Assembly (NCBI GenBank): GCA_030390025.1
Contig: CM059432.1
Coordinates: 19,160,001 to 19,224,000 of the forward strand
Reading direction: 5' to 3'
From: Squalus acanthias
Taxonomy: Eukaryota
DNA: 64,000 nt
Within the stretch, counting starts at the first letter, position 1. Each line of letters opens with the position of its first letter. Made by a program: the position numbers and the translations under genes. The notes beneath the pieces are model-generated. The model had not been told where the DNA came from and made no database searches. It saw only the letters and a list, made by a program, of their open reading frames with translations. Positions 952 to 40,725 of this stretch are shown here, piece by piece.

Positions 952-1394
952 TTCGTTTAGGCACCCTACAGCCCTCTGGACTCAATATCGAGTTCAACAA
1001 TTTTAGATCATAACCTCAGCCCCTATCACAATTATATTTTATTTTTTCATCCACCCTTTTGTTTGACCCCCCCCTTTTTTTTTCCTCCTCGAAGCTGGCA
1101 GGTGTCCTTCATTCTGCCAGTGCATTTCACACTTCATTTAGCCTCAACCTGTCACATTAACACCTCCTCTTGCCTTGATCATCTCTTAATGTCTCTCAAT
1201 GTCTCTTAATCTCTCCTTTTGTTCTTTCATCCCCTCCCCCTTTTCCCAGCTTTATCCTTGCTTTAAATCTATTTCATTTCCTGCTTTTTCCAGTTCTGAT
1301 GAAAGGTCTTCGACCTGAAACGTTAACTCTGTTTCTCTCTCCACGGATGCTGCCTGGCCTGCTGAGTTTTTCCAGCGTTTTCTGATGTTATTTC
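952..1394 (+). mobile_element. Penelope-like element 3' fragment (family A)
   Basis: 12-bp TSD GGACTCCCAGAT at 940-951 and 1395-1406; begins with FRLGTLQPSGLNIEFNNFRS*, resembling a GIY-YIG C-terminus; hammerhead motif in 3' UTR. Confidence 0.8.
1292..1328 (+). ncRNA. Minimal type-I hammerhead ribozyme motif (family A)
   Basis: AGTT-CTGATGA-A-AGGTC ttc GACCT-GAAAC-GT-T-AACT: complete core, stem I 4 bp, stem II 5 bp, loopless palindromic stem III. Confidence 0.75.
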
Positions 1395-2122
1395 GGACTC
1401 CCAGATCTCGTTGCACTTCCCCTTTTCCCAATCTATTCTCATTCAGATAATAATCTGTCTTCCTGTTTTTTGCCACCAAAGTGGATAACCTCGCATTTAT
1501 CCACATTATACTGCATCTGCCATGCATCTGCCCAATCACCCAACCTGTCCAAATCATACTGGAGTTTCTCTGCATCCTCCTCACAGCACACACGCCCACC
1601 CAGGTTTGTGTCATCTGCAAACTTAGAGATATTACATCTAGGTCCCTCGTCTAGATCATTAATATATATTGTGAATAGCTGGGGTCCTAGCACCGATCCC
1701 TGCAGTACCCCACTAGTCACTGCCTGCCACTCAGAAAAAGACCCGTTTATTCCAACTCTTTGCTTCCTGTCTGCCAACCAGTTCTCTATCCAAATCAGTT
1801 TCTTACCCCCAATCCCATGTGCTTTAACTTTGTACGCTAATCTCTTACGCGGGACCTTATCGAAAGCCTTCTGAAAGTCCAAATACACCACATCCACTGG
1901 TTCTCCCTTATCTATTCTACCAGTTACATCCTCAAAAAATTCCAGTAGATTAGTCAGGCATGATTTACCTTTTGTAAATCCATGTTGACTTTGTCGAATC
2001 CTGTCACTGTTTTCCAAGTGCTCAGCTATTACATCTTTTATAATGGACTCTAGCATTTTCCCCACAACCGATGTCAGGCTTACCGGTCTATAATTCCCCA
2101 TTTTTACTCTACCAGCTTTTTG

Positions 2123-2381
2123 AAAAGTGAGAAGTCGCACAACACCAGGTTATAGTCCAACAGCTTTATTTGAAATCACAAGCTTTCGGAGCACTGCTCC
2201 TTCGTCAGGTGAAGTGAAGAAATACAAATGGGCACAGCATTGTATTTCTTCACTTCACCTGACGAAGGAGCAGCGCTCCAAAAGCTTGTGATTTCAAATA
2301 AAGCTGTTGGACTATAACCTGGTGTTATGCGACTTCTCACTTTTGTCCACCCCAGTCCAGCACCGGCATCTCCGCATCATG
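2123..2381. mobile_element. Fold-back Penelope-like insertion (family B)
   Basis: ~105-bp inverted arms 2123-2227 / 2240-2344, 12-nt loop, unique 3' extension to 2381; interrupts the CR1 ORF2. Confidence 0.8.
2176..2212 (-). ncRNA. Minimal hammerhead ribozyme motif (family B); the mirror copy at 2255-2291 (+) has GAAA changed to AAAA
   Basis: Minus strand TCAC-CTGACGA-A-GGAGC agt GCTCC-GAAAG-CT-T-GTGA. Confidence 0.75.
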
Positions 2382-3134
2382 ACCTTTTTTAAATAGTGGG
2401 GTTACATTAGCTACCCTCCAATCCATGGGAACTGTTCCAGAGTCTATAGAATTTTGAAAGATCACCACCAATGCATCTACTATTTCTAGGGCCACTTCCT
2501 TAAGTTCCCTAGGATGTAGATTATCAGGCCCTGGGGATTTATCGGCCTTCAAACCCGTCAATTTCCCTAACACCATTTCCCTACAAATACTGATTTCATT
2601 CAATTCCTCCCTCTCATTAGACCCTATGTTCCCCGACATCTCTGGGAGGTTATTTGTGTCCTCCTTTGTGAAGACAGAACCAAAGTATGTATTTAATTGG
2701 TCTGCCATTTCTTTCTTCCCCATTATAAATTCCCCTGATTCTGACTGCAAGGGACCTACGCTTGACTTCACCAATCTTTTTCTCTTCACATATCTATAGA
2801 GGCTTTTACAGTCAGTTTTTATGTTCCCTGCAAGATTACTCTCATATTCTATTTTCCCCCTCTTAATTAATCCCTTTGTCCTCCTTTGCTGAATCCTAAA
2901 CTGCTCCCAATCCTCAGGCTTGCTGCTTTTTCTGGCCAATGTATATGTCCTCTCCTTGGATCTTATGCTATCCCTAATTTCCCTTGTTAGCCACGGTTGA
3001 GTCACGTTTTTTGTTTTATATTTATGCCAAACAGGGATGAACAAATTCTGGTGCCACTACTTTGTGATCAGCAGCTTGCTGGTCCTCACCTGTGAGAGGT
3101 GCTTCGCTGGTCCTGTCTCTCCAGACTTGCTTTA

Positions 3135-4110
3135 AGGTGTCAGCTTAGCCAAGAGGTAAATCCCTTGCCTCTGAATCAGAAGGTCATGGGGGAAAAATTG
3201 GGTATTGCCCATTTTAGGGCGCTAATATCGGCCGGGCGCAAAGTTTAGCGCCCGGCGCCAATTATCGCCTCCGACTGCAAAATTCACCTCTATCGCCCCT
3301 GGAGGTGATTTGAGTGCTAAATCAGGCGCTACACACCTCTCTTAAGCGAGGCGCTACCTCAGAACGCTACCGAAGCTCAGGTGATGTCAGTTACCATGGA
3401 AGCCAGACAGACTGGCGCCGTCCAGTTCTTAAAGGGGAGGGGCCATCTTGCTGGCCAGCCACACCCTATTGATTGCTGCCTTGAATCTTGGCCTGGAGAG
3501 ACCGCAAAAGCAATTGTGTTGGAAGCACTAATGGATAGGCCCAGGGAAAGAGCTCGGCGCTTAGGAACCTCAAATGTGGTGCTGAGGACCAAATCTCCTT
3601 AGGACAGCGTTAAATCTCTCCAGATGTCTCTCTCCTTCTCAACCTGCGTGTACCAAAGATTTTGCTGACAAGAAAAGGCAGGAAGCACCCGCCTTTAAAT
3701 AGCGCTCCCCCAGCCCCTTCCCGACTTGAAAACGTTCCCCTCTACCTGTCGTTCCTTGCGGCAGGCGCTAAGGCAGGGGGCGCGACTCAATATCCGGTCC
3801 GGGGCGCTCCTGGGGCGTCACTGACGTCACGATCTGCAGGTGCAGGAGATCGTGACGGTAGTGTTTAGCCCCATCACAAAACGACTGGTCAATTTTCGCG
3901 AGCGGCGCTAAAATCGCCACGCTCGGGCGCTAAGTTCCTAGCGCCCCGGAGGCGCTAACAGGAGGCGCTAACCAACCGAATTATTCCCCCCACGAGTTTT
4001 AGCCCAATCCAGGACTTGAGCATGCAATCTGTGCTGACACTTCAATGAAGTGTTGAGAGAGTGTTGCATTGTCAGAGGTGCCATTTTCAGATGGGATAGT
4101 GCTTCAGCAA
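3135..4110 (+). mobile_element. Decayed tRNA-derived SINE split by a Harbinger MITE
   Basis: Head 3135-3187 and body 3991-4110 resemble the SINE at 57857-58288. Confidence 0.6.
3188..3990. mobile_element. PIF/Harbinger-type MITE (GC-rich, GGCGCTAA-rich)
   Basis: TIR GGGGGAAAAATT / AATTATTCCCCC; 3-bp TSD CAT/CAC; inverted homolog at 52282-53173. Confidence 0.85.
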
Positions 4111-4246
4111 AAGCTCCTGACTAAGTGGAAACAGAAAAAAGATAAATGGTAAAGAAATAGTGAATAATTTTCTGGCTTTGAGTTACTGGAGAACCTCACC
4201 TGCTAACAGTGCATCTCAAAAAAATCATAGGCAGCGCTCCTGGCCC

Positions 4247-4650
4247 ACAGCAACAACAAGACAACAACACTTGTATTTATATAGCGCCTTTAATGTAGTT
4301 AAACGTCCCAAGGCGCTTCACAGGAGCATTATAAAACAAAATATGACACCGAGCCACATAAGGAGATATTAGGGCAGGTGACCAAAAGCTTGGCCAAAGT
4401 GGTAGGTTTTAAGGAGCGTCTTGAAGGAGGAAAGAGAGGTAGAGAGGCGAAGAGGTTTAGACAGGGAATTCCAGAGCTTAGGGCCTTGGCAGCTGATGGC
4501 ACGGCCACCAATGGCGGAGCGATTAAAATCGGGGATGCTCAAGAGGCCAGAATTAGAGGAACGAAGAGATCTCGGAGGGTTGTAGGGCTGGAGGAGATTA
4601 CAAGGATAGGGAGGGGCGAGGCCATGGAGGGATTTGAGAACAACAATTGA
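4247..4650 (-). mobile_element. L2-clade LINE 3' fragment
   Basis: Minus-strand end GGCGCTATATAAATACAAG plus (TTG)n; near-duplicate at 29527-29825. Confidence 0.75.
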
Positions 4651-4805
4651 TAGATGTCAACATATTTGGCAACAGCAATACAACTTCTCCAAAAACAAGT
4701 CAGAAATAGGCTCAAAATTGATGTGATCAATGTCGGTGTTAGACTCTTCCACCTTTTGTCAAGCACCTAGCAACCCTGGCCCAGGCAAGAGGAATAGGCG
4801 GAGAA

Positions 4806-5186
4806 ACAGTTGAGTTTTAGACTCAGTTTCAGGACTTGAGCATACACTAGGCAGATGCTGCAGTGAAGTGTTCAGGAAGCGCTGCATTGCCAGAGGTGCT
4901 GTTTTCAGATGGGATGTCAAACCCTGTTTACTTATTCAGGTAGACATAAAAGATCCCGTGGCACTACTTAAAGAGGAGTAGGGAGTTCACCAACACCGCC
5001 AAAATAGATTAACAACTCATTTATCTTATTTGCTGTTTGTGAGACTTTGCTCTGCGCAAATTGGCTGCTGCACTTACCTACATAACAACAGTGACTACAG
5101 TTCAAAAATAATTAATTTGCAGTGAAGTACTTCAGGATGTCCTGAAGATGTGAAAGATGCTATATAAATGCACATTTTTTTTCTTC
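4806..5186 (+). mobile_element. Decayed tRNA-derived SINE with L2-like tail
   Basis: Similar along its length to 57857-58288. Confidence 0.65.
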
Positions 5187-5342
5187 TTTATGTAAATACC
5201 TTGGGCTTCTCGTACCAGGTGGAGCATCTGGTGCGATCTACCATGATGAGAACAACGTGTAGGAGAAAAAAGCGAAATATGTGTTACTATGGCTTCAGGA
5301 CAGAATACCTTGCTCCTGTAACAAAGGCCAATATATGCCAAA

Positions 5343-5487
5343 AATTTCCTCAGGGATTCTCCCGATCGGCCACCCTAATCTAGACGGAAGATTGATGGAA
5401 AACCCAGACGCGCCACGTAAACAGGTTTTCCTGCCAATCTTCCGCAGAATGTTCCAGCGGCCAATCGGAAGAATCCCTGAGGAAATT
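5343..5487. mobile_element. Short palindromic MITE
   Basis: 29-bp terminal inverted repeat (27/29 match) plus an inner inverted pair. Confidence 0.7.
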
Positions 5488-5609
5488 ATATATATTTTGT
5501 AAAATGCTTGCTGTAATTGTATAGCAAGTTTGCTTGGGAGCTTTGTGTGGTACATTCCTGAGGGTGCTACAACTTATAATTTTGGCTCATGCCATGGCTA
5601 CTATGGTCC

Positions 5610-5850
5610 AGTATTAATACTTGGGCACTCCTCCTGATTCCGTTAAACTTTTTCCTTATTTGTAACCATGTCCTACAGGCTTGTGATATTTCATTCACTT
5701 TCTCAGCTACTTCCATCCATGCAGCCACACTAGAAGGTGGCTTCCCACTCCAAACATTGTTACCATTCTCCATTGCATTCTCCTGCATTCGCACCTCCAA
5801 TGCATCTTTCTGAAAAGAGGCAGCTCTTCCCTCATTGCATCTGGGTTCAA
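5610..5850 (-). pseudogene. Myb/SANT-like (Harbinger DNA-binding gene) exon remnant
   Basis: AAWMEVAEKVN...RTWLQIRKKFNGI in ORF 5567-5944 parallels the Myb exons at 12970-13195 and 62860-63099. Confidence 0.65.
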
Positions 5851-6548
5851 TTGCAACTTCAACAAAAACTGTTCTCGAAATACTGAAAGAAGGATGCCCC
5901 TTTAAGGGTGAGCAGCAGCTGTTTAACAGTTGCTGCTTTCCCAATAATCCTTCCCTTCAGCCAAACACAATTCCAGCCTTGCTCCCAGCACCAGTTGGAA
6001 GCCAATTGCAATTATTAAAAGGGGGATAGCCTCTAGCCTCTAGCCTTTTCATTTTCAGCAAGGCCAGCCTCATTGTTACCAGCAAAGGTGCATCCTTGCC
6101 ATGCATAAGCACAGCTCCAAACATGTCAACATAACAAATTTGGATCTCATTAGTCAGGGGATGCCATTCTAAAACTGTAAGGTGCAATGGTTGGACCACA
6201 CCTTGAGTACTTATCCTAGTTTTGGTCATTTAAACACATGGGAAATATTCACGGTCTAGAGTGGTGCAGAGGAGAGTTTTGTAACTGATCTCCAGTGTCT
6301 GAGGGTGAATCTATGAGGGTAGACTCGAGAAATTAGGGCTCTTAGACTTTGAAAGAAAATAACTGTGAGGAAACCTAAATATGTAAGATGGCATGGAAAA
6401 GGTACATCCAGGTTACTGCTTTAAGGTAAACCGCGACAGTAGGACAGCCTAGTGAAAGGTGAATTTAGGTCAGATGTCAGGAAGAATTTCTTCACACAAT
6501 GAGTAATCAACCCTTGGAATAGATCAGATCAGTTACAGTAGTGGAGGT

Positions 6549-7328
6549 TGTTGTTGTTGTTTTGTATCTTCGTGTTCTTCCCTTGGAGAACAGCATGTAG
6601 TAATGAAAGGATTCACAGGCTGATTAACAGTCTGATAGACCATAACGATCTTTATACCAGCTGATAGGGTGGTTAATCCTATATAGCAGGTGAATTTTTT
6701 GGATTCCTACAACTCATATGATGACCGGGGTAGGGGGCACCACACCCACCAGATGTGACTACCCTGCTGGATGTCAAACCAGAATTCATATCTGGAACTC
6801 TTATCTCCTCCAGCTAGAGCTAGGGTACGGTAGCATAGTGGTTATGTTACTGGACTAGCAATCCATAAGACTTGGACTAATAATTCATGAGACGTGAGTT
6901 CAAATGGCAGCTGGGGAATTTTAAATTCAGTTAATTAAATAAATCTGGAATAAATAGCTAGTGTCAGTAATGGTGACCATGAAACGACCAGATTGTCGTA
7001 AAAACCCATCTGGTTCACTACTGTCCTTTTCAGGAAAGAAATCTGCCGTCCTTACCCGGTCTGGACTATATGTGACTCCAGACCCACAGCAATGTGTTTG
7101 ACTCTTAACCGCCCTCTGAAATAGCCTGAGGCAAGCCTTTCAGTTGTACCAAACTGCTACAAAGGAATACTGCAGCAGTTCAAGAGTGTGGCTCACCACC
7201 ACCTTCGCCAGGGCAATTAGGGATGGGCAATAAATGCTGGTCCTTGCCAGCAATGCCCACATCCCTTGAACGAATAAAAAATAAACATTCCGAGGCTGGA
7301 ATGCTACCATTAAGTCAAAGGCTCACTC
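6549..7328 (-). mobile_element. Short retroposon with (AAC)n tail, itself interrupted by an HE1 SINE
   Basis: TSD CAGTAGTGGAGGT at 6536-6548 and 7329-7341; (GTT)n at the left end. Confidence 0.65.
6823..7285 (+). mobile_element. HE1-type SINE, near full length
   Basis: tRNA-like head (GGTAGCATAGTGG; GAGTTCAAAT), conserved core, HER1-like 3' end with A-rich tail. Confidence 0.85.
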
Positions 7329-7847
7329 CAGTAGTGGAGGTGAAAATCTTGCAGTCATTCAAGATCCAACTTCCAGCATCCACCCATCTGCAGGCCCAAT
7401 GTTCTTGCATCTCCATTGCTCTCATTTTTTAAACCACCTTTTCTTTTTCTTTTTGATTTTGTGGGAGCGGGTTAGAGTTTTTTTCCCCCCCCCTTACCCA
7501 TATTTTCTTTCAAGAAAGTAAAGATTAAAGACAAGCAGATTACATGTTGCAGCAGGAAAATGAGCAAACAATCAATGAGGCAGGTAAAATCAATTTATTA
7601 AACTTAACGTTAAAAAAATCTTTTGTTACAAAAATGTTATGTACTGCTTTTCACACTGATGTGGTACTAATGTATATTTGCACGAAAATCAGGGAAGGCA
7701 CATCTAATTTAGTTGGAGCAAAACTTTTAAGCACTCAAGCAAAATAATTTTTTGTAACCACATCCTCTTAAGTGCTCCACTCATGCCACTACTCCTCCCA
7801 CGGGTATAAGTAACCAAAACCAGCACTGCGTTATATTTATAATTCCA

Positions 7848-8350
7848 AGTGTCAGCTTGTCTCAGTGGGAGCACTCTCACCTCCAAGTTAGAAGGTTGTG
7901 AGTTCAAACACAACTCCTGGAAGTTGAGCGTTCTATCTAAGCTGACATGTAAAGCAGCATTTAGGGAGTGTTGTATTGTGGGAGGTGCTGTATTTTGGAT
8001 GTAAAGTTAAGTCGACTCCTGGGTCCGGTGGCACTATTTGAAGAATGGCAGGGAGTTCTTCTGGTGTCCTTGGCCAACATCTGATGTCCTCTAAACCATC
8101 ATCACCAAACATTAGATTAACTGGACCTGGTCATATATCTGATTTGCTCTTTGTGGGCCTTTGCTGTGCAAAAATTGCCGACTTAATTTGTCTACATTGC
8201 AAGAGTGACTACACTTCAAAAGTACTTCACTGGCTGTAAAGCACTTTGGGACATCCGGTGGTCGCGAAAGGCGCTATATAAATCCAAGTCTTTCTTTTAC
8301 ATAACACCAGTGGCTACACTTCAAAAGCAATTAATTGGATGTGAAGTACC
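7848..8350 (+). mobile_element. tRNA-derived SINE with L2-like tail
   Basis: A/B-box head (GAGTTCAAAC); tail GGCGCTATATAAATCCAAGTCTTTC. Confidence 0.7.
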
Positions 8351-8620
8351 TATGCTTCTTCCTCACCCTGTCTCACTATGTGACTGAGCTTCTCTATCTT
8401 TTTACATCAGACTTGATCTCCATCTCTCTCCTTGTTTCGGAACCTTTCTATCGCCAAGTGTTTGTACAACTGTCTCGCTCCCTGTGTGTATGAAACATTT
8501 GGTTATAAGGAGAGACTTGAGATGCTGGGACTATTTCTGCTGCAGCAGAGAATGTTAAGAGATTTAATAGAGGTTTTTAAACTCATGAAGGATATTGATG
8601 AAGTGAATAGGGAAAGGTTC

Positions 8621-9175
8621 TAAGTGGAATTTTAGCTCCCTCTACCCATTAAAATCCAAGCAGTACACTTTAACGCCACTGTGTTCTTGGGCAGCTGAGA
8701 AGCCCACCTAAAATAGGTACGAGCCTCATAAATCTATGCAAATTGAGGTCCTACCACTTAGCTAAGACCCGGATGTTCTTTTACCTGCCTATTAAGCATG
8801 GCGCCGGCCGTGGACGCCCCTCTCAGTAAAACCTGGTGGACACCCAGCAGAGGCTTAGTGTAAAATTTATCTTTGTGGAGCCCAGAGGAGCAGCTGCAAA
8901 ACCCTGCCGAACAGCACCCCCTCCCCACCAACTCCCCACCGCCACCCACCCCCCCCCACATCCCCCCACCCCGTCCAGGCAAATTTACCCGAGTGCCTTT
9001 GGGTCGCCCAATCTTCGTAGGCCCAAAGCTGGCGAGCTGCCTCTGGAGGCCCATTTCAGGTGGCCAGGTGGCCGGAGGGATGCTAATAAGGCCCAACTGT
9101 TAAAATTAACCAGAACTCCCACTGGAGCTCCGGGCAGGCCATCCACACATCCCGCCTAGGAGTTAAAATGCCCCC
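8621..9175. mobile_element. Harbinger-type MITE inside an old CR1 fragment
   Basis: Imperfect TIR (GGAATTTTAGCTCC / GGAGTTAAAATGCCCCC); GC-rich interior; CR1 sequence at 8500-8620 resumes after it. Confidence 0.55.
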
Positions 9176-9205
9176 TTATTTCTTGTGGTTGGGAGTCAGT
9201 TTAAC

Positions 9206-9297
9206 ATGGATACAGTACTAGTGTACATTCTCACTCTGATATAGTACTGGTGCATATTCTCACACTGAGAGTACTAGCATATATTCTTAACATGGTA
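9206..9297. repeat. Imperfect ~30-bp minisatellite, about 3 units
   Basis: Repeated AGTACT(A/G)G...ATTCT units. Confidence 0.6.
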
Positions 9298-9311
9298 CAA
9301 ACCCTGCTGGT

Positions 9312-9870
9312 TAGCACTGGTTAGGCCACAACTGGAGTATTGCATCCAGTTCTGGTCACCACACTTTCGGAAGGATGTGAAAGCACTTGAGGGGGTGCAG
9401 AGGAGATTTACCAGAATGGTTCCGGGGATGGGGGATCTTAGCTACAAGGACAGGTTGGAGAAGCTGGATTTGTTTTCATTAGAGCAAAGGAGGTTGAGGG
9501 GTGATTTGATAGAGGTGTACAAGATTATGACGGGTTTGGATAGGCTAGATGGGGAAAGGCTGTTCCCACTAGTTGATGGTACAAGGACTAGGGGACACAG
9601 ATTTAAGGTTTTGGGCAAGAGATACAGGGGGGATGTGAGGGAAAACTTTTTTACGCAGCGAGTGGTGAGGACCTGGAACTCGCTGCCGACGGAAGTGGTG
9701 GAAGCGGAGACACTCAATGTTTTCAAGGGGAGACTAGATAGGCACTTGAGGGAAATAAACTTGCAGAGCTACGGGGATAGAGCGGGGGAATGGGACTGAC
9801 TGGATTGCTCTACAGAGAGCCGGCATGGACTCGATGGGCCGAATGGCCTCCTTCTGTGCCTTATGACTCT
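9312..9870 (+). mobile_element. CR1 3' fragment
   Basis: ORF 9377-9799 is the CR1 ORF2 C-terminus ([19 protein letters not shown]), followed by 3' UTR. Confidence 0.92.
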
Positions 9871-9872
9871 CT

Positions 9873-10010
9873 ATAAAAACAGAAAATGCTGGAAATACTC
9901 AGCAGGTCAGGCAACATCTGTGGAGAGAGAAACAGAGTTAACGTTTCAGGGCGATGACCTTTCATCAGAACTGGAAAACATTAGAGATATAACAGGTTTT
10001 AAGCAAGTGC
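9873..10010 (-). mobile_element. Penelope-like family A fragment with hammerhead motif at 9936-9972
   Basis: Minus strand AGTT-CTGATGA-A-AGGTC atc GCCCT-GAAAC-GTT-AACT; homologous to 1260-1390. Confidence 0.75.
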
Positions 10011-11542
10011 TTAACACGGTGTATTTGTACAATAATTTAACATGCTCTTGGTCTGAGGGGGAACAAGGGTTGGGTGCAGCACAGTTCTATAGGGGCCCGC
10101 AGAGGCTATTCCACTCTCTCCAGGGTATTTTTTGAATCATTTGTTACCACATTCATGATGTCAATCATTGAAAAGGATTTTTCTTAAATGGCTGTACTTT
10201 GGGAGAAACATTGGTGTAATTAAAAAGAATCCAATCAATTAATGGACGAATTTCTTGTGACCTGTTGGCCTTCTTTTAGCGCTACCTGGTTGTCAGTTGT
10301 AGACAGAGAGCATTTCTACAGTGACCTTACCGAATTAAACTGCCAAACAGAATCATCTCTGCCATATTAATGCCTCATTAATCTTTCTCCCCTTGGTGCA
10401 CGTTGTTCACTAATTCTTCTACAAAATCACCCTGGATTACATTTAAAATTTTAATTAATCGAAGAGTTAGAGGGTGGTAGCCTGCATCTTCTAATGCAAA
10501 TCAGTACTTCTATTTGAAAGCCAGCCACAGAGGAGAGATCTTTCTTCAGCCCTGGCTCGCGTACAAGTAAAAGATTAAAACATTAATTTTTGGGGCTTTT
10601 CTCAAATTTACTTCTGAGTGCTTGCAGTATCCCACAGCTATGAAGGAACTGCTGGCAGATTAGGCAAAAATGTTGTTTATTCACCTGCAAAATGGAAGGT
10701 TTCCTCAAGAGCTTTCAACAGGATTTTCCAAAATAAAAGGTTTTATTTATTGTGACAACCCGTTTTTCTATCATCGCCTTTTTTTTTTCCCCCCTGAAAA
10801 AGAAATCTGGCTTTGGAATAAATCCATTTAACAGACAGTCATATCTATAAGTACCAGGTCTGTCGGAGTCTTTCAGTGCAAAATTAAAATCTGAGCCACT
10901 GCCAATTTTCCATCAGCCCCATTATTCAGATGTCTGTGTTTTACTTTGAATTGTCGGTTCTAATTTAAAATATGATGTGTGAAATCAAAGACCTCCTAGA
11001 ATTAGTGACACGTGATTGGGGATGAATCTGAGAGAAAGGGAAAAAAAATCTGGAATATCTAGAACATTCTGAGAAGTGGTAGCAGGCAATGGGCTCTTTG
11101 ATTTAAAAAATAGCATAATTATTTGATTGTGGCTTGAAGGAAAAAGGACAGACTATATTTCCCAAATCGTTAATAACACAGTTTCATCTTAATCCAAAAT
11201 TAATTTGTTTTTGAAAGGTTAATATTTTACTTTAAAGATAACGAAAGTTCTATCATTACTTTAATAATAAAATTAAAAATGACTCTCATTCATCTTACTT
11301 TGGTGTCAAAAGACAGTGCCTGCTTATATTGTTCTGATGCACATTAGTGTATGCAGCTTTGATATTATGGCCCAGTGTAAACATTCTGATTATTAAGAGT
11401 TTTGATTGAGTGAATAGGGACAGACTATTTCCTCGAGATGGGAAGTCAGTGACAATGGGTCATCAATTTAACAATGTCACTAAGAGATTGCCTGAATTGT
11501 GTATGGCAGGTATTATAAGATAGGATATTTCTGAAACACTAA

Positions 11543-19829: not shown

Positions 19830-20445
19830 AAGCATTTGCGTTTATAGAGCTCGCTTCACATCATCTGGATGTCGCAAAGCTCATGGTCTACTTCCTACCA
19901 ACAAGTTACTTTTTTAAAGTGTGACCACTGTTGTTACAGAGGCAAACATGTCAGCCAATGGCATGCAGGCAAGTCCCACAAACAACAATATGATAAGACA
20001 AAAGCAAAATTCTGCGGATGCTGGAAATCTGAAATAAAAACAGAAAATGCTGGAAATACTCAGCAGGTCAGGCAGCATCTGTGGAGAGAGAAACAGAGTT
20101 AACGTTTCAGGTCGATGACCTGTCAGGTCGAGGAAAGGTCCTCGGTCTGAAACGTTAACTCTGTTTCTTTCTCCACAGATGCTGCCTGACCTGCTGAGTA
20201 TTTCCAGCAATTTCTGTTTTTATAGCAATAAGATAAAGACCCTTTAATCTGTTTTGTGAGGTGCTGGTTTAGGGACGACTGTTGGCAGGACACTGAGAAA
20301 AAGCAATGCTTTCCTTTGAAAAAGTGCTGTGGGATCTTTTCTATCCAGACAGACGGGATCTCGATTTAATGGCTCCAACAATGCAGCACGCCCTTAGTCT
20401 TTGTACTGACGTGTCAACCTGTCTCAAATGTGCTCAAATCCTGGA
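19830..20445 (-). mobile_element. tRNA-derived SINE split by a Penelope-like insertion
   Basis: Reverse-complement similarity to 57857-58288. Confidence 0.6.
19997..20223. mobile_element. Fold-back Penelope-like insertion (family A)
   Basis: Inverted arms ~20034-20121 / 20136-20223 meeting inside the hammerhead motif; imperfect TSD CAATATGATAA / CAATAAGATAA. Confidence 0.8.
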
Positions 20446-23322: not shown

Positions 23323-23451
23323 ACAAAAGCAAAATACTGCGGATGCTGGAAATCTGAAATAAAAACAGAAAATGCTGGAAATACTCAGCAGGTCAGGAAG
23401 CATCTGTAGAGAGAGAAACAGAGTTAACGTTTCAGGTCGATGACCGTTCGT
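23323..23451 (-). mobile_element. Penelope-like family A insertion, truncated within the hammerhead core
   Basis: 11-bp TSD CAATAATTGAT at 23312-23322 and 23452-23462. Confidence 0.85.
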
Positions 23452-23819
23452 CAATAATTGATTTCTGCTTTGCATAGGTCTTGTGATAGCAGGCCAGCTG
23501 AGCTGGGCGCCACACGGGCAATCTGATAATCTCTGTTCCCGAGATTATTTTTCTAGCAAGCTAAAAAGAAGTAAATGATGCTGGATGATATACAAAAAGA
23601 TCATCTCAGTCAGGCTAGGAAACGGCATTGAAAAGACTAAAGGTGAGGAAATCATCTCCAAAATGGTTGGGAGCACGGGAAATAGGAATGCATGGAATCG
23701 GCAGGAAAACCGAGGAGAAAACCAAAGTGTGAGGTTGAAGGTGTAAACTGAACTTCTCCAATCTTTCCATAGGCAGAACTGATGAGCACTCTGATAATAT
23801 TTCAAAAAATTAAACAAAT

Positions 23820-25295: not shown

Positions 25296-25404
25296 TGTTA
25301 ATTTTAAACTCAATTGGGTTTTTTCTAAGGAACGGTCATGTGTTTTCTCCCTTTCTTTCTCTCATGCCTAAACAGCATGGTATTCATTCTGGGTCTCTTT
25401 TTTG

Positions 25405-30834: not shown

Positions 30835-31696
30835 AGATAAATCAAGGACAGTTAGCATGGTTTTGTTAAGGTAAGGTCGTGTCTGACTCACTTGATTGAA
30901 TTTTTTAAGGAGGGTCGATGAGGGTAGATGTTTAATATAGTCTACATGGATTTTAGCAAGGCTTTTGACAAGGTCCCACAAGCCAGACTGGTCAGAAAAG
31001 TAAAAGCCCATGGGATCCAAGGGAAAGTGGCAAGTTGGATCCAAAGTTGGCTCAGTGGCAGAAAGCAAAGGGTAATGGTTGACGGGTGTTTTTGTGACTG
31101 GAAGGCTGTTTCCAGTGAGGTTCCACAAGGCTCAGTACTAGGTCACAGCTAGAGTACTGCATACAGTTCTGGTCACCACATTACAGTAAAGATGTGATCA
31201 TACTAGAGAGGGTACAGAGGAGATTTATGAGGATGTTGCCAGGACTGGAGAATTTTAGCTATGAGGAAATATTGGATAGGCTGGGGTTGTTTTCTTTGGA
31301 ATGGAGGAGGCTGAGGGGAGATTTAATTGAGGTGCAAATATTATGAGGGGCCTAGATAGAATGGATAAGAAGGACCTATTTCCCTTAGCAGGGAGGTCAA
31401 TAATCAGGGGGCATAGATTTAAAGTAATTGGTAGAAGGATTAGAGGGGAGTTGAGGGGAAATTCTTTCACCCAGAGGGTGGTGGGGGTCTGGAACTCGCT
31501 GCCTGAAAGGGTGGTAGAGGCAGAAACCCTCATCTCACTTAAAAAGTACTTGGATATGCACTTCAAGTGTCGTAACCTACAAGGCTACGGACCAAGAACT
31601 GGAAAGTGGGATTCGGCTGGATAGCTCTTTTCCGGCCGGCATAGACACGATGAGCTGAATGGCCTCCTTCTGTGCCGTAAATTTCTACGATTCAAT
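30835..31696 (+). mobile_element. Internally deleted CR1 3' fragment
   Basis: ORFs 30928-31152 (YMDFSKAFDKV) and 31343-31624. Confidence 0.9.
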
Positions 31697-32477
31697 GGGG
31701 GTGATTTTGCCAATGGGGGCGCGTTGGAGGCGGGACTGCTGCTTGTCGGGTTTTAGTCCCGCCTCCATCGACTTGTGGCCAACCCACGCTATTTTCCCTT
31801 GATTGACCTTGTTAAGCCTGCCCAGTGGGCTTAGCAGGTCAATTAAGGAGAAACCGGTTACAGAGAATGTCAGCGTATGACGTTTCATCTGTCAAAAATT
31901 TTTGATGAGTCCTTGTATTCAAGACTCATCAAACCTCTTTTGTGAGCAGAAATTAGATGGTTGTTGCATCTGGGAATGCAGCAGCCATCTGTCATCTCTG
32001 CCGGTGAGATGCGAGACTCTCCGCATCCCCAACTGTTGAAGCCTGCAGGAAGAAACAAAGGTAAGTAAATATTTTCTGTCACTTTCCACTCACCTCACAT
32101 ACTTACCTCTCCACACTTGCACCCATCACTTACCTCCACAGCGCACCTTTGGACCCCCTCCGACCCCCGCAGACCCACTGCTCGCCTCGGTGATCCTGGC
32201 GGGGTTTCCCGACGTCGGGAAGCCCGCGCCTCTGGTGGAAAAATGGGGATAATCCTCTTAACTGCCTGTTAACTACCTGTTAACAGGCAGTTAAGTGGCT
32301 GTAATCCCCTTCCTGCCTCCAGGAGATGGGATCCGGCGCGGGTCGGCTACCCGCCTCCTGGGAAGATGGCATGGAGGCGGGTTGGGGGCGGGATGGTTAC
32401 CCGCCCCCAGATTCTGCCATTTTCCTGGCAGTCCCGCCTCCAAACCCGCCTCCCCCAGGGCTGGCAAAATCCAGCCC
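31697..32477. mobile_element. Harbinger-type MITE inserted in a CR1 tail
   Basis: TIR GGGGGTGATTTTGCCA / TGGCAAAATCCAGCCC; TSD AAT/TAT. Confidence 0.8.
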
Positions 32478-32671
32478 TATGGTTCTCTGACCTTTGCTTC
32501 CTGAAGCTTTTGATGAATACCTCCTATAAACCCTGTAAGTTCTAAATGCTCATTAATAGCACCCCTCATGATACTTTCTATTATCTTTCCCGCTGCTGAG
32601 GTTGGACTCATTGGTGCAAAGTTCCCTGGATTTGATTGTAATTATGTTTTGAATAAGGGGGCTATGTGTAC

Positions 32672-32926
32672 TAAAAACAGAAAATGCTGGAAATACTCAG
32701 CAGGTCAGGCAGCATCTGTGGAGAGAGAAACAGAGCTTTCGTCAGAACTGGAAAAAGTTAGAGATGTAACAGATTTTAAACAAGTACAAAGGCTGGGAAA
32801 GCGGGGAAGGGAGGAAAGAACAAAAGGGAAGGCCTGTGACAGGGTAGAAGGCAGGAGAGACGAAATGACAAACGGGATGATCGTGCGAGGCAAAAGATGG
32901 TAATGGGAAAAGTAAAGAAACAAAAG
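32672..32926 (-). mobile_element. Penelope-like family A fragment with most of the hammerhead deleted
   Basis: Homologous to 9873-10010 but lacking stem II, GAAA and stem III. Confidence 0.75.
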
Positions 32927-32929
32927 ATT

Positions 32930-33215
32930 TTTTTTATTCATTCACAGGATAGGCCAGCATTTATTGCCCATGAGAAGGTGATGGTGATCTGCCTTATACA
33001 ACTGAGTGGCTTGCTTGGCCATTTCAGAGGGTAGTTAAGAGTCAACCACATTGCTGTGGGTCTGGAGTCACATATAGGCCAGAACGGGTAAGGAGAGTAG
33101 ATTTCCTTCACCTAAAGGACATTAGTGAACCAGATGGGTTTTTAACAACAATTCAGTAGTTTCATGGTCACCATTACTGATATTAGCTTTCTATTCCAGA
33201 TTTATTTAATTAACT
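32930..33215 (-). mobile_element. HE1-type SINE fragment
   Basis: Reverse complement of 6925-7285. Confidence 0.8.
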
Positions 33216-33225
33216 GCAATTAAGG

Positions 33226-36200
33226 ACATGGGTAGAAAGAGGGATGAGGTCCTGCAACAAGAATTTAGGGAGCTAGGTAGCAGATTAAAAAGCAGGACCT
33301 CAAAGGTTGTAATCTCTGGATTACTCCCGGTGCCACATGCTGGTGAGTATAAGAATAGGAGGATAGAACAGATGAATGCGTGGCTAAAGAGTTGGTGCAG
33401 GAGGGAGGGCTTTAGTTTCCTGGATCACTGGGTCTGCTTCTGGGGAAGGTGGGACCTGTACAAGTCGGACGGGTTGCACCTGAACCGGAACAACATCCTT
33501 GCAGGGAGGTTTGCTAGTACTGTTGGGGGGCGGGGTTTAAACTAACTTGGCAGGGGAATGGGATAGGGAGTGGAGCTATAGTAGGGGTTGATGCACAGCC
33601 AAATATAGAAGAAAAAACAAGTCAGCCTGGAAGGCAGAGCAAATATGTAATGGCACAACGGAGTATGGCAAGGCTGGATGGCATTTATTTTAATGCAAGG
33701 AGTCTTGCGAGTAAGGCTGATGAATTGAAGGTGTTGATGAACACATAGGAGTACAATATTGTTGCTATCACAGAGACATGGTTGAGGGAGGGGCAGGACT
33801 GGCAGCTCAATATTCCGGGGTATAGAATCTTCAGGCGAGATAGAGGGGGTTTTAAAAGAGGAGGGGGTGTCGCAATATTAATCAAGGAGTCAATTACTGC
33901 TGTAAGGAGAGATGATATCTTAGCAGGTTCCTCTAATAAGGCCATATGGGTAGAACTTAAAAACAAAAAGGGGGCAAGCACTTTGCTGGAAGTGTACTAT
34001 AGGCCCCCAAACAGTCAGGGGGAGATAGAGGAACAGATATGTAGGCAAATCTCAGAGAAGTGTAGAAATAATAGGGTAATAATAGTAGGGGATTTCAACT
34101 TCCCCAATATTAACTGGGATAGTCAGAGTGTGAAAGGCTTAGAGGGTGCGTAATTCTTAAAGTGCATCCAGGAGAGCTTTTTGAGCCAGCACGTAGAAAG
34201 TCCTACAAGAGAGGGGGCGGTACTGGACCTAATTCTAGAGAATATAGCCGGGCAAGTGGTAGAAGTGTCAGTAGGAGAGCATTTTGGTGACAGTGACCAT
34301 AATTCGGTGAGATTTAAGGTAGTCATGGAAAAGGACAAAGATGGACCGGAAATAAAGGTTCAAAATTGGGGGAAGGCCGATTTTAATATGATAAGGCAGG
34401 ATCTGGCCAAAGTGGACTGGGATCAGCTACTTGTCTTTCAGAAAGGAAATAGAGAGAGTACAACGCCAACATGTTGCCGTAAAGGTCAAGGGTGGGACAA
34501 ACAAGCCCAGGGAACCCTGGATTTCAAGGGATATACAAGAATGGATTAGGAAAAAAAGGGAGGCTTTTGGCAGATACAAAGGACTAAAAACAGTGGAAGC
34601 CCTAGAGGAGTATAGAAAGTGCAGGGGGGTACTTAAAAAAAAAATAAGGAGAGCGAAGAGGGGGCATGAAAAAACACTGGCGGGCAAAATAAAGGAAAAT
34701 CCCAAGGTGTTTTATAAGTATATTAAGGGCAAGGGGATAACCAGGGAAAGAGTAGGGCCCATTAGGGACCAACGTGGCAATCTGTGTGTAGAGCCGGAAG
34801 ATGTGGGTGAGGTTTTAAATGAATATGTTGCATCTGTGTTCACTATGGAGAAGAATGATGTAGGCATAGAAATCAGGCAGGGGGATTGTGGTATACTTGA
34901 ACAAATTAGTATTGAGAGGGAGGAGGTACGAGCGGTTTTAGCGGGCTTAAAAGTGGATAAATCCCCAGGCCCAGACGAGATGTATCCCAGGCTGCTGTGT
35001 GAGGCAAGGGAGGAGATTGCAGGGGCTCTGACACAAATTTTCAGATCCTCTCTGGCCACAGGGGAGGTCATGATGCGGAGATGCCGGTGTTGGACTGGGG
35101 TGGACAAAATTGAGAGGTCGCACAACACCAGGTTATAGTCCAACAGTTTTATTTGAAATCACAAGCTTTCGGAGCTATCGATCGCCCCTTCCTCAGGTGA
35201 AGTAGCTACTTCACCTGACACAGGGGAGGTGCCAGAGGACTGGAGGACAGCTAACGTAGTACCATTATTCAAGAAGGGTAGTAGGGATAAACCAGGGAAT
35301 TACAGGCCAGTGAGCCTAACATCAGTGGTAGGGAAATTATTGGAAAAAATTCTGAGGGACAGAATTAGTCTCCATTTGGAGAGGCAAGGATTAATCAAGA
35401 ATAGTCAGCATGGCTTTGTCAGGGGGAGGTCATGTCTAATCAATTTGATTGAATTTTTCGAGGGGGTGACTAGGTGTGTGGATGAGGGTAATGCAGTTGA
35501 TGTAGTCTACATGGACTTCAGTAAGGCTTTTAAGCATGGGAGACTGGTCAAGAAAGTAAGAGCCAATGCGATCCAGGGCAATTTGGCCCATTGGATCCAA
35601 AATTGGCTTAGTGGCAGGAGGCAGAGGGTGATGGTTGAAGGTTGTTTTTGTGACTGGAAGCCTGTGTCCAGTGGTGTACCGCAGGGATCGATGCTGGGTC
35701 CTTTGCTGTTTGTAGTGTACATTAATGATTTAGATATGAATGTAGGAGGTATGATCAGTCAGTTCGCAGATGACACGAAAATTGGTGGAGTGGTAAATAG
35801 CAAGGAGGGAAGCCTCAGGCTACAGGACGATATAGACAGGTTTGTCAGATGGGCAGAACAGTGGCAAATGGAATTTAACCCTGAAAAGTGTGAGGTGATG
35901 CATTTTGGGAGAACTAACAAGGCAAGGGAATACACAATGAATGGTAGGACCCTAGGAAGGACAGAGGATCAGATGGACCTTGGTGTGCATGTACATAGAT
36001 CCCTGAAGGCAGCAGGACAGGTAGATAAGGTGGTTAAAAAGGCATATGGGATACTTGCCTTCATTAGTCGAGGCATAGAATATAAGAGCAGGGAGGTTAT
36101 GATGGAACTGTACAAAACGTTAGTTAGGCCACAGCTGGAATAATGTGTGCAGTTCTGGTCGCCACACTATAGGAGGGATGTGATTGCATTGGAGAGGGTG

Positions 36201-36677
36201 CAGAGGAGATTAACCAGGACATTACCTGGGCTGGAGCGCTTCAGCTATGAAGAGAGACTGGACAGGCTGGGGTTGTTTTCCTTAGAGCAGAGAAGGCTGA
36301 GGGGGGACCTGATTGAGGTGTACAAAATTATGAGGGTCATAGATAGGGTAGATAGAAAGGAACTTTTCCCCTTAGTAGAGGGGTCAATGACCAGGGGGCA
36401 TAGTTTCAAGGTAAGGGGCAGGAGGATTAGAGGGGATTTGAGGAAAAACTTTTTCACCCAGAGGGTGGTTGGAATCTGGAACCCACTGCCTGAAAGGGTG
36501 GTAGAGGCAGGAACCCTCACAACATTCAAGAAGCATTTAGATGAGCACTTGAAATGCCATAGCATACAAGGCTACGGACCAAGTGCTGGAAAATGGGATT
36601 AGAATAGATAGGCCTTGATGGCCGGCGCGGACACGATGGGCCGAAGGGCCTCTTTCTGTGCTGTATAACTCTATGAT
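33226..36677 (+). mobile_element. Long CR1 LINE: ORF1 esterase-like C-terminus, ORF2 APE + RT (disrupted), 3' UTR
   Basis: 33228-33545 (ISGLLP...DGLHLN); APE motifs ITETW, GDFNFP, SDHN; RT ORF 35229-36143 with FADD; C-terminus 36147-36602. Confidence 0.95.
35069..35218 (-). mobile_element. Penelope-like family B insertion with hammerhead (35159-35200) and terminal 26-bp palindrome
   Basis: 12-bp TSD CACAGGGGAGGT at 35057-35068 and 35219-35230; minus strand TCAC-CTGAGGA-A-GGGGC...GCTCC-GAAAG-CTT-GTGA. Confidence 0.85.
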
Positions 36678-36800
36678 ATGAATTTAAATTCCCCAGCTAC
36701 AATGGGTGGGATTTGAACTCACGTCTCCAGATCATTAAGTCCAGGATCATAACCAGATTTCTAGTCCAGTACCTCTAACCACTATGCTACCGTACCCCAT
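36678..36800 (-). mobile_element. HE1 SINE tRNA-like head
   Basis: Reverse complement of 6823-6930. Confidence 0.75.
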
Positions 36801-37418
36801 ATGGAGCTAGAGGAGGTGTAAATGGGAATGGCAGAATCATCAGCAACTTTTCTTCAATCCTCTAGCACTCTAGGAGCTAATGTCCTGGATTCAACTACAA
36901 CAGGATGCAGGATGAACCAATCTGAACTAAGCATTAGGAACCTCAGTTTTAGTTGTAATTAAGGACCCACTGAAAACGAACAGCTCACTTTCAACCCAAT
37001 CAAACAGTTTGATGTTGATAAGCAATTACTGCTTCAAATGCTTAGGCCTCTGCCCTTGTCATTAATACCGTGGGACTTGAGGTTTAAACCTGAGATTGCC
37101 TTTCAGGTCTGAAATTTTATAGGAAAATCTATATTGTAATCTTCTGTGGCTTTTCAGTGTTAAAACGAATGGTCAATACCTCGACTCTTGAGTCAAATTG
37201 CCGAGTCAATGTTATTTTAATTGGATACCTCATCTTAAAGGAGACTGTAAAAATAGATTACATTTTCTTTTAGATGTGACAGTAAAGGTACATTACTTTG
37301 AAATTTAGAAGCAATTTATTTTCCTAACCCTCTCACTGTCTGCAAACGTTTTATACGCTGCTAACCTTTTACCAAAATAAAGGATAGCACTTCACATCCG
37401 TTAAGGTTACAAATATAG

Positions 37419-37943
37419 GGTGCGATTTTCAACCGCCTGAAAAATGGCCAATTAGTTATTAAAAACCGGGGTGGGAGGCGGGGGGTTCACCTTGGTCACC
37501 ACATTGGCGGCCAAGGACCGTCTGATGAAATTTTCATGCGGCCTATAAATGGGCAAGCAGCCCGCCCACCTGAAACAGGCAGGAGGCTGCTGAGATAAGC
37601 ATATCGGGCTGCTACACCCGATTTACAGGTACAAATGGGCAGAGCAGCACTGCCTATGCTCTGCTCATTTTTATCCAGGCGGTGAGCGGCCTAACCAGCG
37701 GTCCTGAGAGGGGTCGCTCAAAAAACGGCCCAGGAAGGATACCATTTTTTTTTTGGTGGGCCCAGAAGGAGCCGTTTGCCCGCCCTCCCAGAACCGGCGA
37801 GCTGCAGTGGGGGCCGCCACCTGATGCCCACAGCTCGCCTAGGTCGCAAAGTGTCTCGGAACGCGTGCCAGCATTAACGGGCGGGCAGAGCGGTCGGCCC
37901 ACGGACTTGCCATCCATTTTGAGTGCTACCTCAAGACTGCCCC
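37419..37943. mobile_element. Probable Harbinger-type MITE
   Basis: GC-rich island in AT-rich DNA; weak TIR; TAG on both flanks. Confidence 0.45.
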
Positions 37944-38671
37944 TAGGCTATGTATTCTTTAAATTGATGGTTTCTGTTTCAAACATAAGCACAACTGCAA
38001 AAAGTGTTTGTACTGTTGGAACAGGGTTGTCAAAGCAATCTTCTATCCCAGAATAACTTATCAATCAGTCAGTTGAAAGCTTTAGTACTTGAGGCCTCTT
38101 CATAGGTCCCAATATGCTTTTCCACAATGCTTTAGAGATCAGCATAAAAAAATGTTTTTTATTGCTGGAAGTTCAGAGAGCCCTTGTAGTGATAAATATT
38201 TGTCATAATGAGTCCAGTGGGCTAACGGAGATAAAAAAAATATTAGGGATGTCCAAGATGCAGTTGAATGCTATAATGGGAGACTTAGGGTACTCGAGGG
38301 GTGAGATTCAATGGGCCAGGTAGCCTTTTCTGATCCGTGATTTTAACTGTGTTCTCAATCTTTCATTAAAGTTTCAGTGCAGCTCCACATGAAGAACTCT
38401 ATTTATCAGAAAGAACGACATGTTTAGCATACACAGTTAAAGCTTATATCCCTGTAATAAAATCACCAATATTTCCGCACAACACTAACTGCTTAATCTC
38501 TGCAGCAGAATATTTCGTCCTTATTTAAATTTGCTCTGTTTAATTGGGCACCTTTTGTTGTTTGTTAGCAAGAGAAACAATAAGCCGTTCATCTCACCGG
38601 TATTTTGTTTCATTTTTTATGTGTCATGATTTGAGACACAGTTACTATTTGTACAGGGAGTGATGCGATGA

Positions 38672-39135
38672 CCCCAATTTTAAGGTGGTGTGCCCGAGGC
38701 CCAAAGTGGGTGGCACGCCCGGGGAGTCCGGGGACGTGGAGGCCCAGTTGTTAAGATTGCCAGTGACATTCTCGGTGGACCGTCCGTGGGGGCGGGAATT
38801 TGGCAGCAGGAAGCCATAGCCGGGGACCCACAGGATCGGTCCCCTCGCTAGCCAAATAAATGGTGGTGGGGGCTGGTAGGGCGGTTAAAACCTATGACCA
38901 GGAAGGCCCGAGGCTTCCTTGTGGGGCCCGCTGGATCACTCCTGCTCCTCCTGGCCCACGTGGACACCTAAAAGCAAATTAAAAACTTAGCGGCCTGGGC
39001 CTTTTCTGACCCACGATCTCCCTCCCGACAGGTCTGGCCTGACGGGGAAGCCGTCACTGCTCCCCCTGCTCAGGCCTCTAATTGAAATTGCAGATCGCAT
39101 CCTGATGATATCATCGGGCCCTGATTTGCATATCT
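38672..39135. mobile_element. Truncated GC-rich MITE-like fragment
   Basis: Composition and motifs like 8621-9175; only one end recognisable. Confidence 0.4.
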
Positions 39136-39136
39136 G

Positions 39137-39657
39137 CTTAGGAAAGATATATTGGCCTTGGAGGGAGTGCAGCATAGGTTTACCAGAATGATACCCAGAC
39201 TCCAGGGGTTAAATTGCCAGGAGAGATTACACAAACTAGGGTTGTATCCCTTGGAATTTAGAAGGTTAAGGGCCAGGGTGATTTGATCAAAGTTTTCAAG
39301 ATATTAAGGGGAACTGATAGGGTAGATAGAGAGAAACTATTTCCACTGGTTGGGGATTCTAGGACTAGGGAGCATAGTCTAAAAATTAGAGCCAGACCTT
39401 TCAGGAGTGAAATTAGGAAACACTTCTACACACAAAGGGTGGTAGAAGTTTGGAACTCTCTTCCACAATCAGCAATTGATGCTAGATCAATTGTTAATTT
39501 TAAATTTGAGATTGATAGATTTTTGTTAACCAAAGATATTAAGGGATATGGGGTAAAGGAGAGTATATGGAGTTAGGTCGCAGATCAGCCATGATCTCAT
39601 TAATTAGCGGAACAGGCTTGCAGGGCTAAATAGCCTACTCCTGTTCCTATGTTCCTA
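39137..39657 (+). mobile_element. CR1 3' fragment
   Basis: ORF 39283-39576; TGTTCCTA tail. Confidence 0.9.
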
Positions 39658-39699
39658 TTTAAAAAAAGACCTCGCCAACTTGGGGCGGGTTTCCTCCAG

Positions 39700-40725
39700 A
39701 CAATGACCTTCTCCAATAAGAGAGTTTAACCACATCTCCTCACATTCAATGGCATTACTATTGCCAAGTTCCCCACCATCCTGGGGGTCACCATTGACCA
39801 GAAACTGAACTGCACCAGCCACATAAATGCAGGTTGGCAGGTGGGTATTCTGTGGCAAGTAGCTCACCTCTTTACTCCCCAAAGCCTTTCCACCACCTAC
39901 AAGGCCCATGTCAGGAGTGTGTTGGAATGCTCTCCACTTGTCTGGATAGATGCAGCTGCAACAATACTGAAGAAGCTCGACACCATGCAGGACAAAGCAA
40001 TCGCTTGATCGGCACTTCATCCACTAGCCTAACATCCACCCCCTTGTAAGATATGTAATACCTGGTTATGCTTTAAAACCGTAGCTCTTTAATAAAAGCC
40101 TTACAACTTCTAAAACCCTTTTGGGTAATCTGTGTGTGGCCTGTGATCCGGATCTTACACCCTCCTTCACCAGCATACCATGGCTGCAGTGTATACTGTC
40201 TGCAGGATGCACTGCAGCAACTTGGCAAGGCTTCTTTGTAGCACCTCCTAATCCTGTGACCTCCACTACCTAGAAAGAAAAGAGAGAGAAGTCGCACAAC
40301 ACCAGGTTATAGTCCAACAGATTTATTTAATTTTACAAGCTTTCGGAGCAGTTCGCTCCTTCGTCAGGTAAGTTAGCAGTGAGAGAATCTCCCAGAATTC
40401 ACAATTCAAACACAGACAAAATCTATTCACATCTTTCCCTACATCAAAGAGCACAGCCAAGACAATGAGATGTGTCCCAGGGGGTCCAACGTGTCAAACC
40501 ACCTGCTGGCTGCATATCCTGTCAATCTGTGTAGGTTCTTGTGTTAGTCTTAAAAAAAAACACCTCCAAGATTTTTGTTCCAAGTCACATACCATCCTGA
40601 CTCAAATATATATCACTATTCCTTCATTGTCACTGGGTCAAAATTCTGGAACTCCCTACCTAATAATATTGTGGGAGCACCTTCACCACACATATTGCAG
40701 AGGTTCAAGAAGAAGGCCCACCTCC
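39700..40725 (+). mobile_element. Decayed HER1-like 3' region with insertions
   Basis: Similar to 26355-26830 and 27220-27390. Confidence 0.7.
40282..40555 (-). mobile_element. Penelope-like family B variant with hammerhead at 40333-40371
   Basis: Minus strand TTAC-CTGACGA-A-GGAGC gaact GCTCC-GAAAG-CT-T-GTAA. Confidence 0.75.

Follow-up and report, generated by a model that had tools for sequence, protein, structure and literature searches.

A 64,000-nucleotide stretch of the shark Squalus acanthias (assembly GCA_030390025.1, contig CM059432.1, positions 19,160,001 to 19,224,000 of the forward strand; this whole stretch is called the window below) contains five short sequences with the intact core of a hammerhead ribozyme, and it raises the question of what carries these motifs and whose RNA, if any, they cut. 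The explanation that, taken as a whole, we consider probably correct is that the five motifs are minimal hammerheads in the pseudo-long terminal repeats (pseudo-LTRs) of 5′-truncated copies of two young Penelope-like retrotransposons, designated here families A and B, that selection likely keeps the motif only in full-length transposing elements, and that the scattered copies are likely passengers in neutral decay.

The five cores, all of the form CUGANGA-A...GAAA-NN-UU, lie at 1292–1328 (+), 2176–2212 (−), 9936–9972 (−), 35159–35200 (−) and 40333–40371 (−), and are named below by their first positions. They had been picked out earlier from the letters alone (the sequence-only reading), and the positions, strands, stem I sequences, extra A, palindromes (AACGUU or AAGCUU) and GUU or CUU triplets given there hold for every one of them. 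Each core has, in order, a 4 bp stem I, CUGANGA, the extra A, a 5 bp stem II, GAAA, CG or GC, UU and the 3′ strand of stem I, and all five satisfy the consensus C3U4G5A6N7G8A9 ... G12A13A14A15.1 ... U16.1H17. The description of stem II was correct in outline and wrong in two copies. Four of the five cores pass a base-pairing descriptor that demands 4 bp in both stems, but 9936 fails it because its stem II (AGGUC/GCCCU) contains a U.C mismatch, and the family B stem II of 35159 reads GGGGC/GCUCC, with a G.U pair and an 8 nt loop. In a sample of 1.064 Mb, made up of the window with 20 neighbouring and 80 evenly spaced 10 kb stretches, the same descriptor found 28 matches, every one of which belongs to family A or B, with no third hammerhead family among them; the extra A between positions 9 and 10.1 is present in all 28 and a palindromic 15.2-16.2 in 24.

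These numbers bear directly on the simplest alternative, namely that the motifs are chance matches or an artefact of assembly. Eight Markov shuffles of the sample gave 0, 0, 0, 0, 0, 0, 0 and 1 descriptor matches, and reversed patterns gave none in the entire genome, and this alternative, which we find scarcely credible, is refuted by these two controls. It could draw on the Rfam covariance models, with which there are 13 matches at E≤5 and none to a hammerhead family, although we attribute this to the absence of a closed stem III from the motif. A full-length family A element (locus L171, 2500–6300) also has between 0.63 and 0.74 of its sampled words in common with public runs of several different organisms, and near-identical family A copies are therefore present in more than one species. 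No tandem repeat covers any of the five sites.

The Penelope-like origin proposed in the sequence-only reading is borne out by full-length elements of both families that encode a reverse transcriptase (RT) and a GIY-YIG endonuclease (EN), and we regard it as practically certain that the two motif families are hammerheads of Penelope-like elements (PLEs). The end of a GIY-YIG domain was located upstream of the motifs of both families. When the genome was searched with the start of the family A open reading frame (ORF), 2,163 candidates were found, of which the 40 scored were approximately 100 % identical; a same-strand hammerhead lies 139–141 nt upstream of the ORF start in 21 of 30 loci, and two hammerheads lie 3.19–3.21 kb apart in 11 of 12 regions chosen from them. 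Seven of these 12 regions contain an open frame of 1004 codons that runs through the hammerhead, and its product matches the Pfam families RVT_1 (E-value 2.6e-5) and GIY-YIG (E-value 6.8e-4), both under the curated cut-offs. Family B is represented by the full-length B2 element at locus L183, in which the hammerheads are 3,046 bp apart and a 919-codon frame has its first ATG just past the tail. The family B protein matches RVT_1 above the cut-off (E-value 2.3e-8) and has no Pfam match to GIY-YIG, though a GIY-YIG motif is visible in its sequence. The two proteins are 31 % identical over 897 amino acids and the pseudo-LTRs give no alignment (best E-value 0.87), and despite this divergence the catalytic core is common to both families. 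Copies show 5′ truncation, inverted arms, two 3′ ends about 35 bp apart and partial-tandem pseudo-LTRs. Between RT and EN both proteins have a CX4CxxC segment, and by its sequence this would be the zinc linker of the Neptune type; a CX2-5CxxC linker is described as a trait of Neptune that is also found in Nematis (Craig et al., 2021).

When the search of the window was anchored on sequence downstream of the motif, a total of ten copies was found, six of family A and four of family B. Five are broken and were absent from the earlier list of cores (family A at 20125 −, 20130 +, 23453 − and 32757 −; family B at 2255 +). The copies and their hammerheads are as follows.

951–1394, +: 5′-truncated family A Penelope-like copy, in which pseudo-LTR follows the final 20 codons and the stop codon of the GIY-YIG ORF (951–1013).
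1292–1328, +: family A minimal type I hammerhead with core and stems intact and A-U at 10.1-11.1.
2124–2376, no single strand: inverted (fold-back) family B1 insertion, two pseudo-LTR ends fused at their 5′ truncation points.
2176–2212, −: family B1 hammerhead, intact in sequence and predicted to be wholly paired with the antisense arm.
2255–2291, +: family B1 hammerhead with G12A, a CpG-type change, predicted to be dead.
9873–9995, −: short family A pseudo-LTR copy; hammerhead at 9936–9972 with intact core and a U.C mismatch in stem II.
20021–20223, no single strand: two family A ends in inverted arrangement, each truncated within the core.
23346–23453, −: family A end, truncated where the core begins.
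32672–32831, −: family A copy in which a 21 nt deletion has removed GAAA, the cut site and the greater part of stem II.
35069–35218, −: family B1 copy with tail; hammerhead at 35159–35200; inserted in what is presumably the ORF of a long interspersed nuclear element (LINE).
40286–40562, −: family B2 pseudo-LTR copy; hammerhead at 40333–40371 with stem I UUAC/GUAA.

The copy at 951–1394 is 88 % identical to the full-length element at L171 over 445 bp and is bounded by a 12 bp direct repeat (940–951 and 1395–1406) that is likely a target-site duplication; the predicted cut of its hammerhead falls between 1324 and 1325. Similarly, the copy at 35069–35218 is bounded by a 12 bp direct repeat at 35057–35068 and 35219–35230, and the LINE that it interrupts is presumably of the CR1 type. 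The B2 copy at 40286–40562 is 93.6 % identical to the element at L183 over 280 bp. One arm of the insertion at 2124–2376 carries the tail and the other is without it. Rfam matches to microRNAs at 2147–2320 and 20080–20177 correspond to the fold-back insertions and were rejected.

The sequence-only reading had supposed that this genome harbours a very large population of such motifs, and it does. Exact patterns searched in the 3.71 Gb genome gave 22,953 copies of family A with AGGUC, 12,476 of family A with GGGUY, 24,424 of family B ending in GUGA and 5,907 of B2, and these four disjoint sets together amount to at least 65,760 cores; in the first and third patterns the 5′ strand of stem I is left wholly or largely free, and longer loops and other variants escape all four. 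A random 0.8 Mb contains 17 intact copies, or about 21 per Mb, from which approximately 79,000 copies can be extrapolated (Poisson range about 46,000–126,000). The density of copies in the window is about three times that of the random sample.

The stems show covariation, as had also been claimed. Helices I and II of family B are backed by compensatory changes across 23 recurrent haplotypes, each seen at least twice and picked with a pattern that holds constant the core, G10.1 and three letters in the 3′ strand of stem I; 206 of their 207 stem cells are paired, two pairs being doubly compensated and three changed to G.U. None of 500 shuffles reached the same covariation score, and slid controls pair at 17–49 %. 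The double compensatory change noted in stem I of 40333 is a genuine pair, but it is an inherited trait of a subfamily rather than a change in that copy. Genome-wide, the UUAC/GUAA form occurs 5,907 times, the single-sided forms UUAC/GUGA and UCAC/GUAA 278 and 120 times, and among the single-sided copies listed most have B1 loops, as expected of sporadic mutants. The only such change seen in the stems of family A is at 10.1-11.1, where A-U changes to G.U; family B has a G10.1-C11.1 closing pair at this position. N7, loop II and H17 vary freely, H17 being U or C and G not having been seen in 158 copies.

A further claim was that these ribozymes are able to cut host transcripts, and here the evidence points the other way. 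G12 is the general base of hammerhead catalysis, and in family B1 it lies in a CpG that can be compared with a control CpG about 50 nt downstream. With a common pattern applied genome-wide there are 49,397 intact copies, 1,206 with G12A and 1,279 with G-to-A at the control CpG, so that G12 decays at 2.4 % and the control at 2.6 %; the counts therefore reveal no net selection on catalysis in either direction, in a test that covers one base of family B1 only. Since G12 is lost as often as the control base, the motif in scattered copies likely serves the copying of the element itself and not the cutting of host RNA. The core is also no poorer in rare changes than its flank. Among copies that were not selected for their core, the rare differences per site number 0.012 in the core and 0.007 downstream in family A (61 of 65 copies kept) and 0.005 and 0.004 respectively in family B (97 copies), the downstream figure being biased low by the search.

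The alternative that dispersed hammerheads cut host pre-mRNAs, in cis or as intermolecular dimers, with effects that matter to the host, gains some appeal from the sheer number of exact cores, from the palindromic stem III, which lets any two copies of one family pair, and from the core at 40333, which alone among the five is predicted to form both stems when folded in a context of ±150 nt and which has another family B copy on its strand at a distance of 5.2 kb. We nonetheless judge it very unlikely. Apart from the rate of G12 decay, an inverted partner lies within 3.5 kb of 13 of the 26 intact copies in the 1.064 Mb, and a same-strand partner within 5.5 kb of only six, these counts being limited by the edges of the stretches, and four of the six sit in two full-length elements. 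Three of the five window copies are predicted by folding in the same context to be broken or sequestered: 9936 loses stem II, the core of 2176 lies in a long hairpin with a probability of being unpaired of 0.0, and a 12 bp fold-back at 35194–35217 would hide stem I and C3-A6 of 35159. Stem II of 1292 is predicted to form (P 0.8–1.0) and its stem I is not. In the published accounts, as far as they were available to us, single motifs of this class did not cleave and dimers were weak (PMC4209133), and the motif of an anole element needed the element's own protein (PMC11167929). Selection seems to be confined to master copies that transpose, and the dispersed copies are very probably passengers. 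We note that the B1 hammerhead at 35159–35200 and the B2 hammerhead at 40333–40371, both on the − strand, would form a mixed dimer with a U.G wobble in one stem I and a C.A mismatch in the other.

In a full-length element, we propose, the two repeat-borne hammerheads would pair with each other, likely assisted by the element's own protein, and the paired hammerheads would cut out a unit RNA, which is likely re-joined into a circle and then reverse-transcribed. This cut-and-circle step we advance tentatively, giving it a little less than an even chance; dependence on a dimer, low activity, assistance by protein and a start of RT at the tail would follow the behaviour of such motifs in other species. 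Its most specific form, in which a unit RNA of 3.0–3.2 kb is cut by both hammerheads, circularised and reverse-transcribed past its own junction, is possible but more doubtful, and would explain why both repeats share private mutations across the cut site and why copies do not start there. The RT of the related anole element is described as starting at the tail, downstream of the hammerhead (PMC11167929), and every copy that extends upstream would therefore have come from RNA continuous across the cut site. Only one of 106 family A copies and two of 121 family B copies have their 5′ ends at this site. There is thus no peak of ends there; the copies give no sign of cut linear RNA as a template, and we have rejected it in that role. 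In 24 full-length family A elements (11 from a first set and 13 out of 14 pairs tried subsequently), 22 private substitutions are found in both repeats and on either side of the cut site, a few of them being alignment effects of homopolymer changes, and N7 agrees between the two repeats in all 24. The two repeats have therefore usually been copied from one template segment or were homogenised soon after. This fits the model put forward in 2014, in which dimeric cleavage and ligation yield a circle that is reverse-transcribed over more than one unit length, although it does not prove it.

Several observations weigh against a cleaving and circularising role, and with them must be considered the alternative that the fold owes its retention to an optional or non-catalytic purpose, the RT template being an uncut linear tandem and the repeats made identical by RT jump-back or gene conversion. 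Such a purpose might be that of a protein-binding or folding element by the RT start, or the control of splicing or translation of the overlapping frame. We count this as a possible, though not a probable, account. The covariation in family B amounts to about five inherited events, not 23 independent ones, and the 45 nt that follow the core show roughly the same conservation across subfamilies as the core itself, so that conservation within a family does not by itself single out catalysis; the core stands out between families and from its upstream flank (the subfamilies of family A diverge immediately before stem I), whereas it does not stand out from the downstream flank. A lineage of family B with a U4C core numbers 2,578 exact copies, in which the pair at 10.5-11.5 is either compensated or a wobble. 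It has at least four loop II variants (loci L120, L128 and L303–L312) and therefore stayed mobile through several masters; U4C is reported to lower activity in vitro yet to permit viroid infectivity (Perreault, 2011). In the 24 repeat pairs there are also 18 private substitutions found in one repeat only, and two elements have lost a 10 bp unit from the 3′ repeat alone. Moreover, template jumping on uncut RNA or gene conversion could also give the shared variants, and the reading through of the cut site by all copies that reach upstream suits an uncut template as well. With ViennaRNA, the active dimer of 1292 has an energy of −9.7 kcal/mol and the cofold minimum −19.3 kcal/mol, the corresponding values for 2176 being −19.1 and −33.2 kcal/mol, in nearest-neighbour estimates that ignore tertiary contacts of the core and protein. 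For the anole element, the report as available describes insertion in vitro that was not reduced by mutation of the hammerhead, and an absence of RNA-seq ends at the cut site (Frangieh, 2024; PMC11167929), and Naiad elements are described as having spread without hammerheads.

The family A frame crosses the hammerhead, and in every upstream variant seen a pyrimidine run followed by YAG overlaps the 5′ strand of stem I (for example, at 1276–1294 + in the window and at L181, 3110–3128), an arrangement that resembles the intron end described for Drosophila Penelope and would suit a role in splicing. Against such a role, no GT..AG joint ending at this YAG is present among the joints listed from eight contig sets, and no intronless copy was found among 102 genomic copies. 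Two other facts speak against a non-catalytic role in general: the catalytic core is precisely what two families with such divergent proteins and unalignable repeats have in common, and recurrent variation falls on N7, loop II, H17 and compensated pairs, as the rules for hammerheads permit.

The class to which these motifs belong is already known, since every structural feature matches the minimal hammerheads of metazoan PLEs described by Cervera and de la Pena (2014; PMC4209133). The features shared with that description, as far as it was available, are the type I topology, CUGANGA with one extra nucleotide, the lack of loop III, a palindromic 15.2-16.2, a helix I of 4 bp, a site in both pseudo-LTRs, mostly single dispersed copies and inverted pairs on opposite strands. 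The parts of the published alignment that were compared include UCAC/GUGA in lamprey, GC-UU in turtle and A-U at 10.1-11.1 in coelacanth family 2. Family A departs from the usual form in lacking the G10.1-C11.1 pair (consensus >80 %), and the U4C subfamily has no counterpart in that part of the alignment. No shark entry is present in the one supplement file of that paper that was searched, and we found no literature on hammerheads of these shark-like families, although the work of Lunse and some supplements lay outside the search and may list them. The at least 65,760 copies here compare with about 9,000 in Xenopus and about 4,000 in coelacanth (PMC4209133).

Among individual elements, the closest comparison is with PAc, the Poseidon-type element of Anolis carolinensis (PMC11167929), which by its published description likewise has a hammerhead at the junction of pseudo-LTR and ORF, an RT with a C-terminal GIY-YIG, two 3′ ends set apart by a 30–40 bp tail and, as in family A, a frame that overlaps the hammerhead. 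Unlike PAc, both families here have the CX4CxxC linker of the Neptune or Nematis type, which Poseidon lacks (Craig et al., 2021), and the first ATG of family B comes just after the tail. Small hammerhead variants with a short palindromic stem III and dimeric cleavage have been described by Lunse, Weinberg and Breaker (cited through PMC6765202), a likeness that extends to their title and description. Animal non-LTR retrozymes, also reported from one chondrichthyan species, carry type I hammerheads related to those of pseudo-LTRs (Li, Clavereau & Pollet, 2026; bioRxiv 10.64898/2026.07.22.740005), but these are tandem non-coding arrays, whereas here autonomous elements have left truncated, dispersed copies and no tandem array lies over the sites.

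What the present analysis adds to the known class is a count several times the largest figures of 2014, intact young elements of both families that can be used in assays, a genome-wide test that detects no selection on G12 in the scattered copies of family B, and evidence from repeat pairs that fits a circular template. The intact elements are useful material because published accounts still describe as unclear what the hammerhead does in elements of this kind. Should the circle model be true, the young A and B elements, including the U4C lineage, would make the 2014 hypothesis directly testable in a vertebrate, and in a species with one of the largest hammerhead loads reported. A huge population of ribozymes that cut host RNA would matter much more, and it is against this that the evidence points.

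Some smaller observations concern individual copies and the surroundings of the five motifs. In 20 of 106 family A copies and 23 of 121 family B copies the 5′ truncation point falls at the 5′ edge of the hammerhead, in a cluster located 29–45 nt upstream of the 3′ end of stem I, perhaps from pausing of the RT or fold-back at the structure. Family A copies at loci L203, L208, L220, L221, L066 and L172 are cut within 1–4 nt of the cleavage site and abut a repeat end of the form AAAAT...GCCC/GGCC, possibly that of a Harbinger-type DNA element that often lands there. Copies that begin at GTTAACT resemble cut ends, and we rejected them as products of ribozyme cleavage because they adjoin the end of another repeat; at L221 a stretch resembling a 5′ half lies about 1 kb upstream of the cut copy. 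The full-length family A element at locus L180 splits a long ORF (7021–9393 − and 1003–2760 −) that presumably belongs to the gag-pol region of an LTR retrotransposon. The long ORFs of the window itself seem to us to be fragments of LINEs and DNA transposons; those at 53938–54450 (−), 50258–50806 (+) and 61118–62305 (−) we take to resemble a Harbinger-type transposase and its partner protein, and many of the other ORF fragments presumably derive from CR1, L2 and RTE LINEs.

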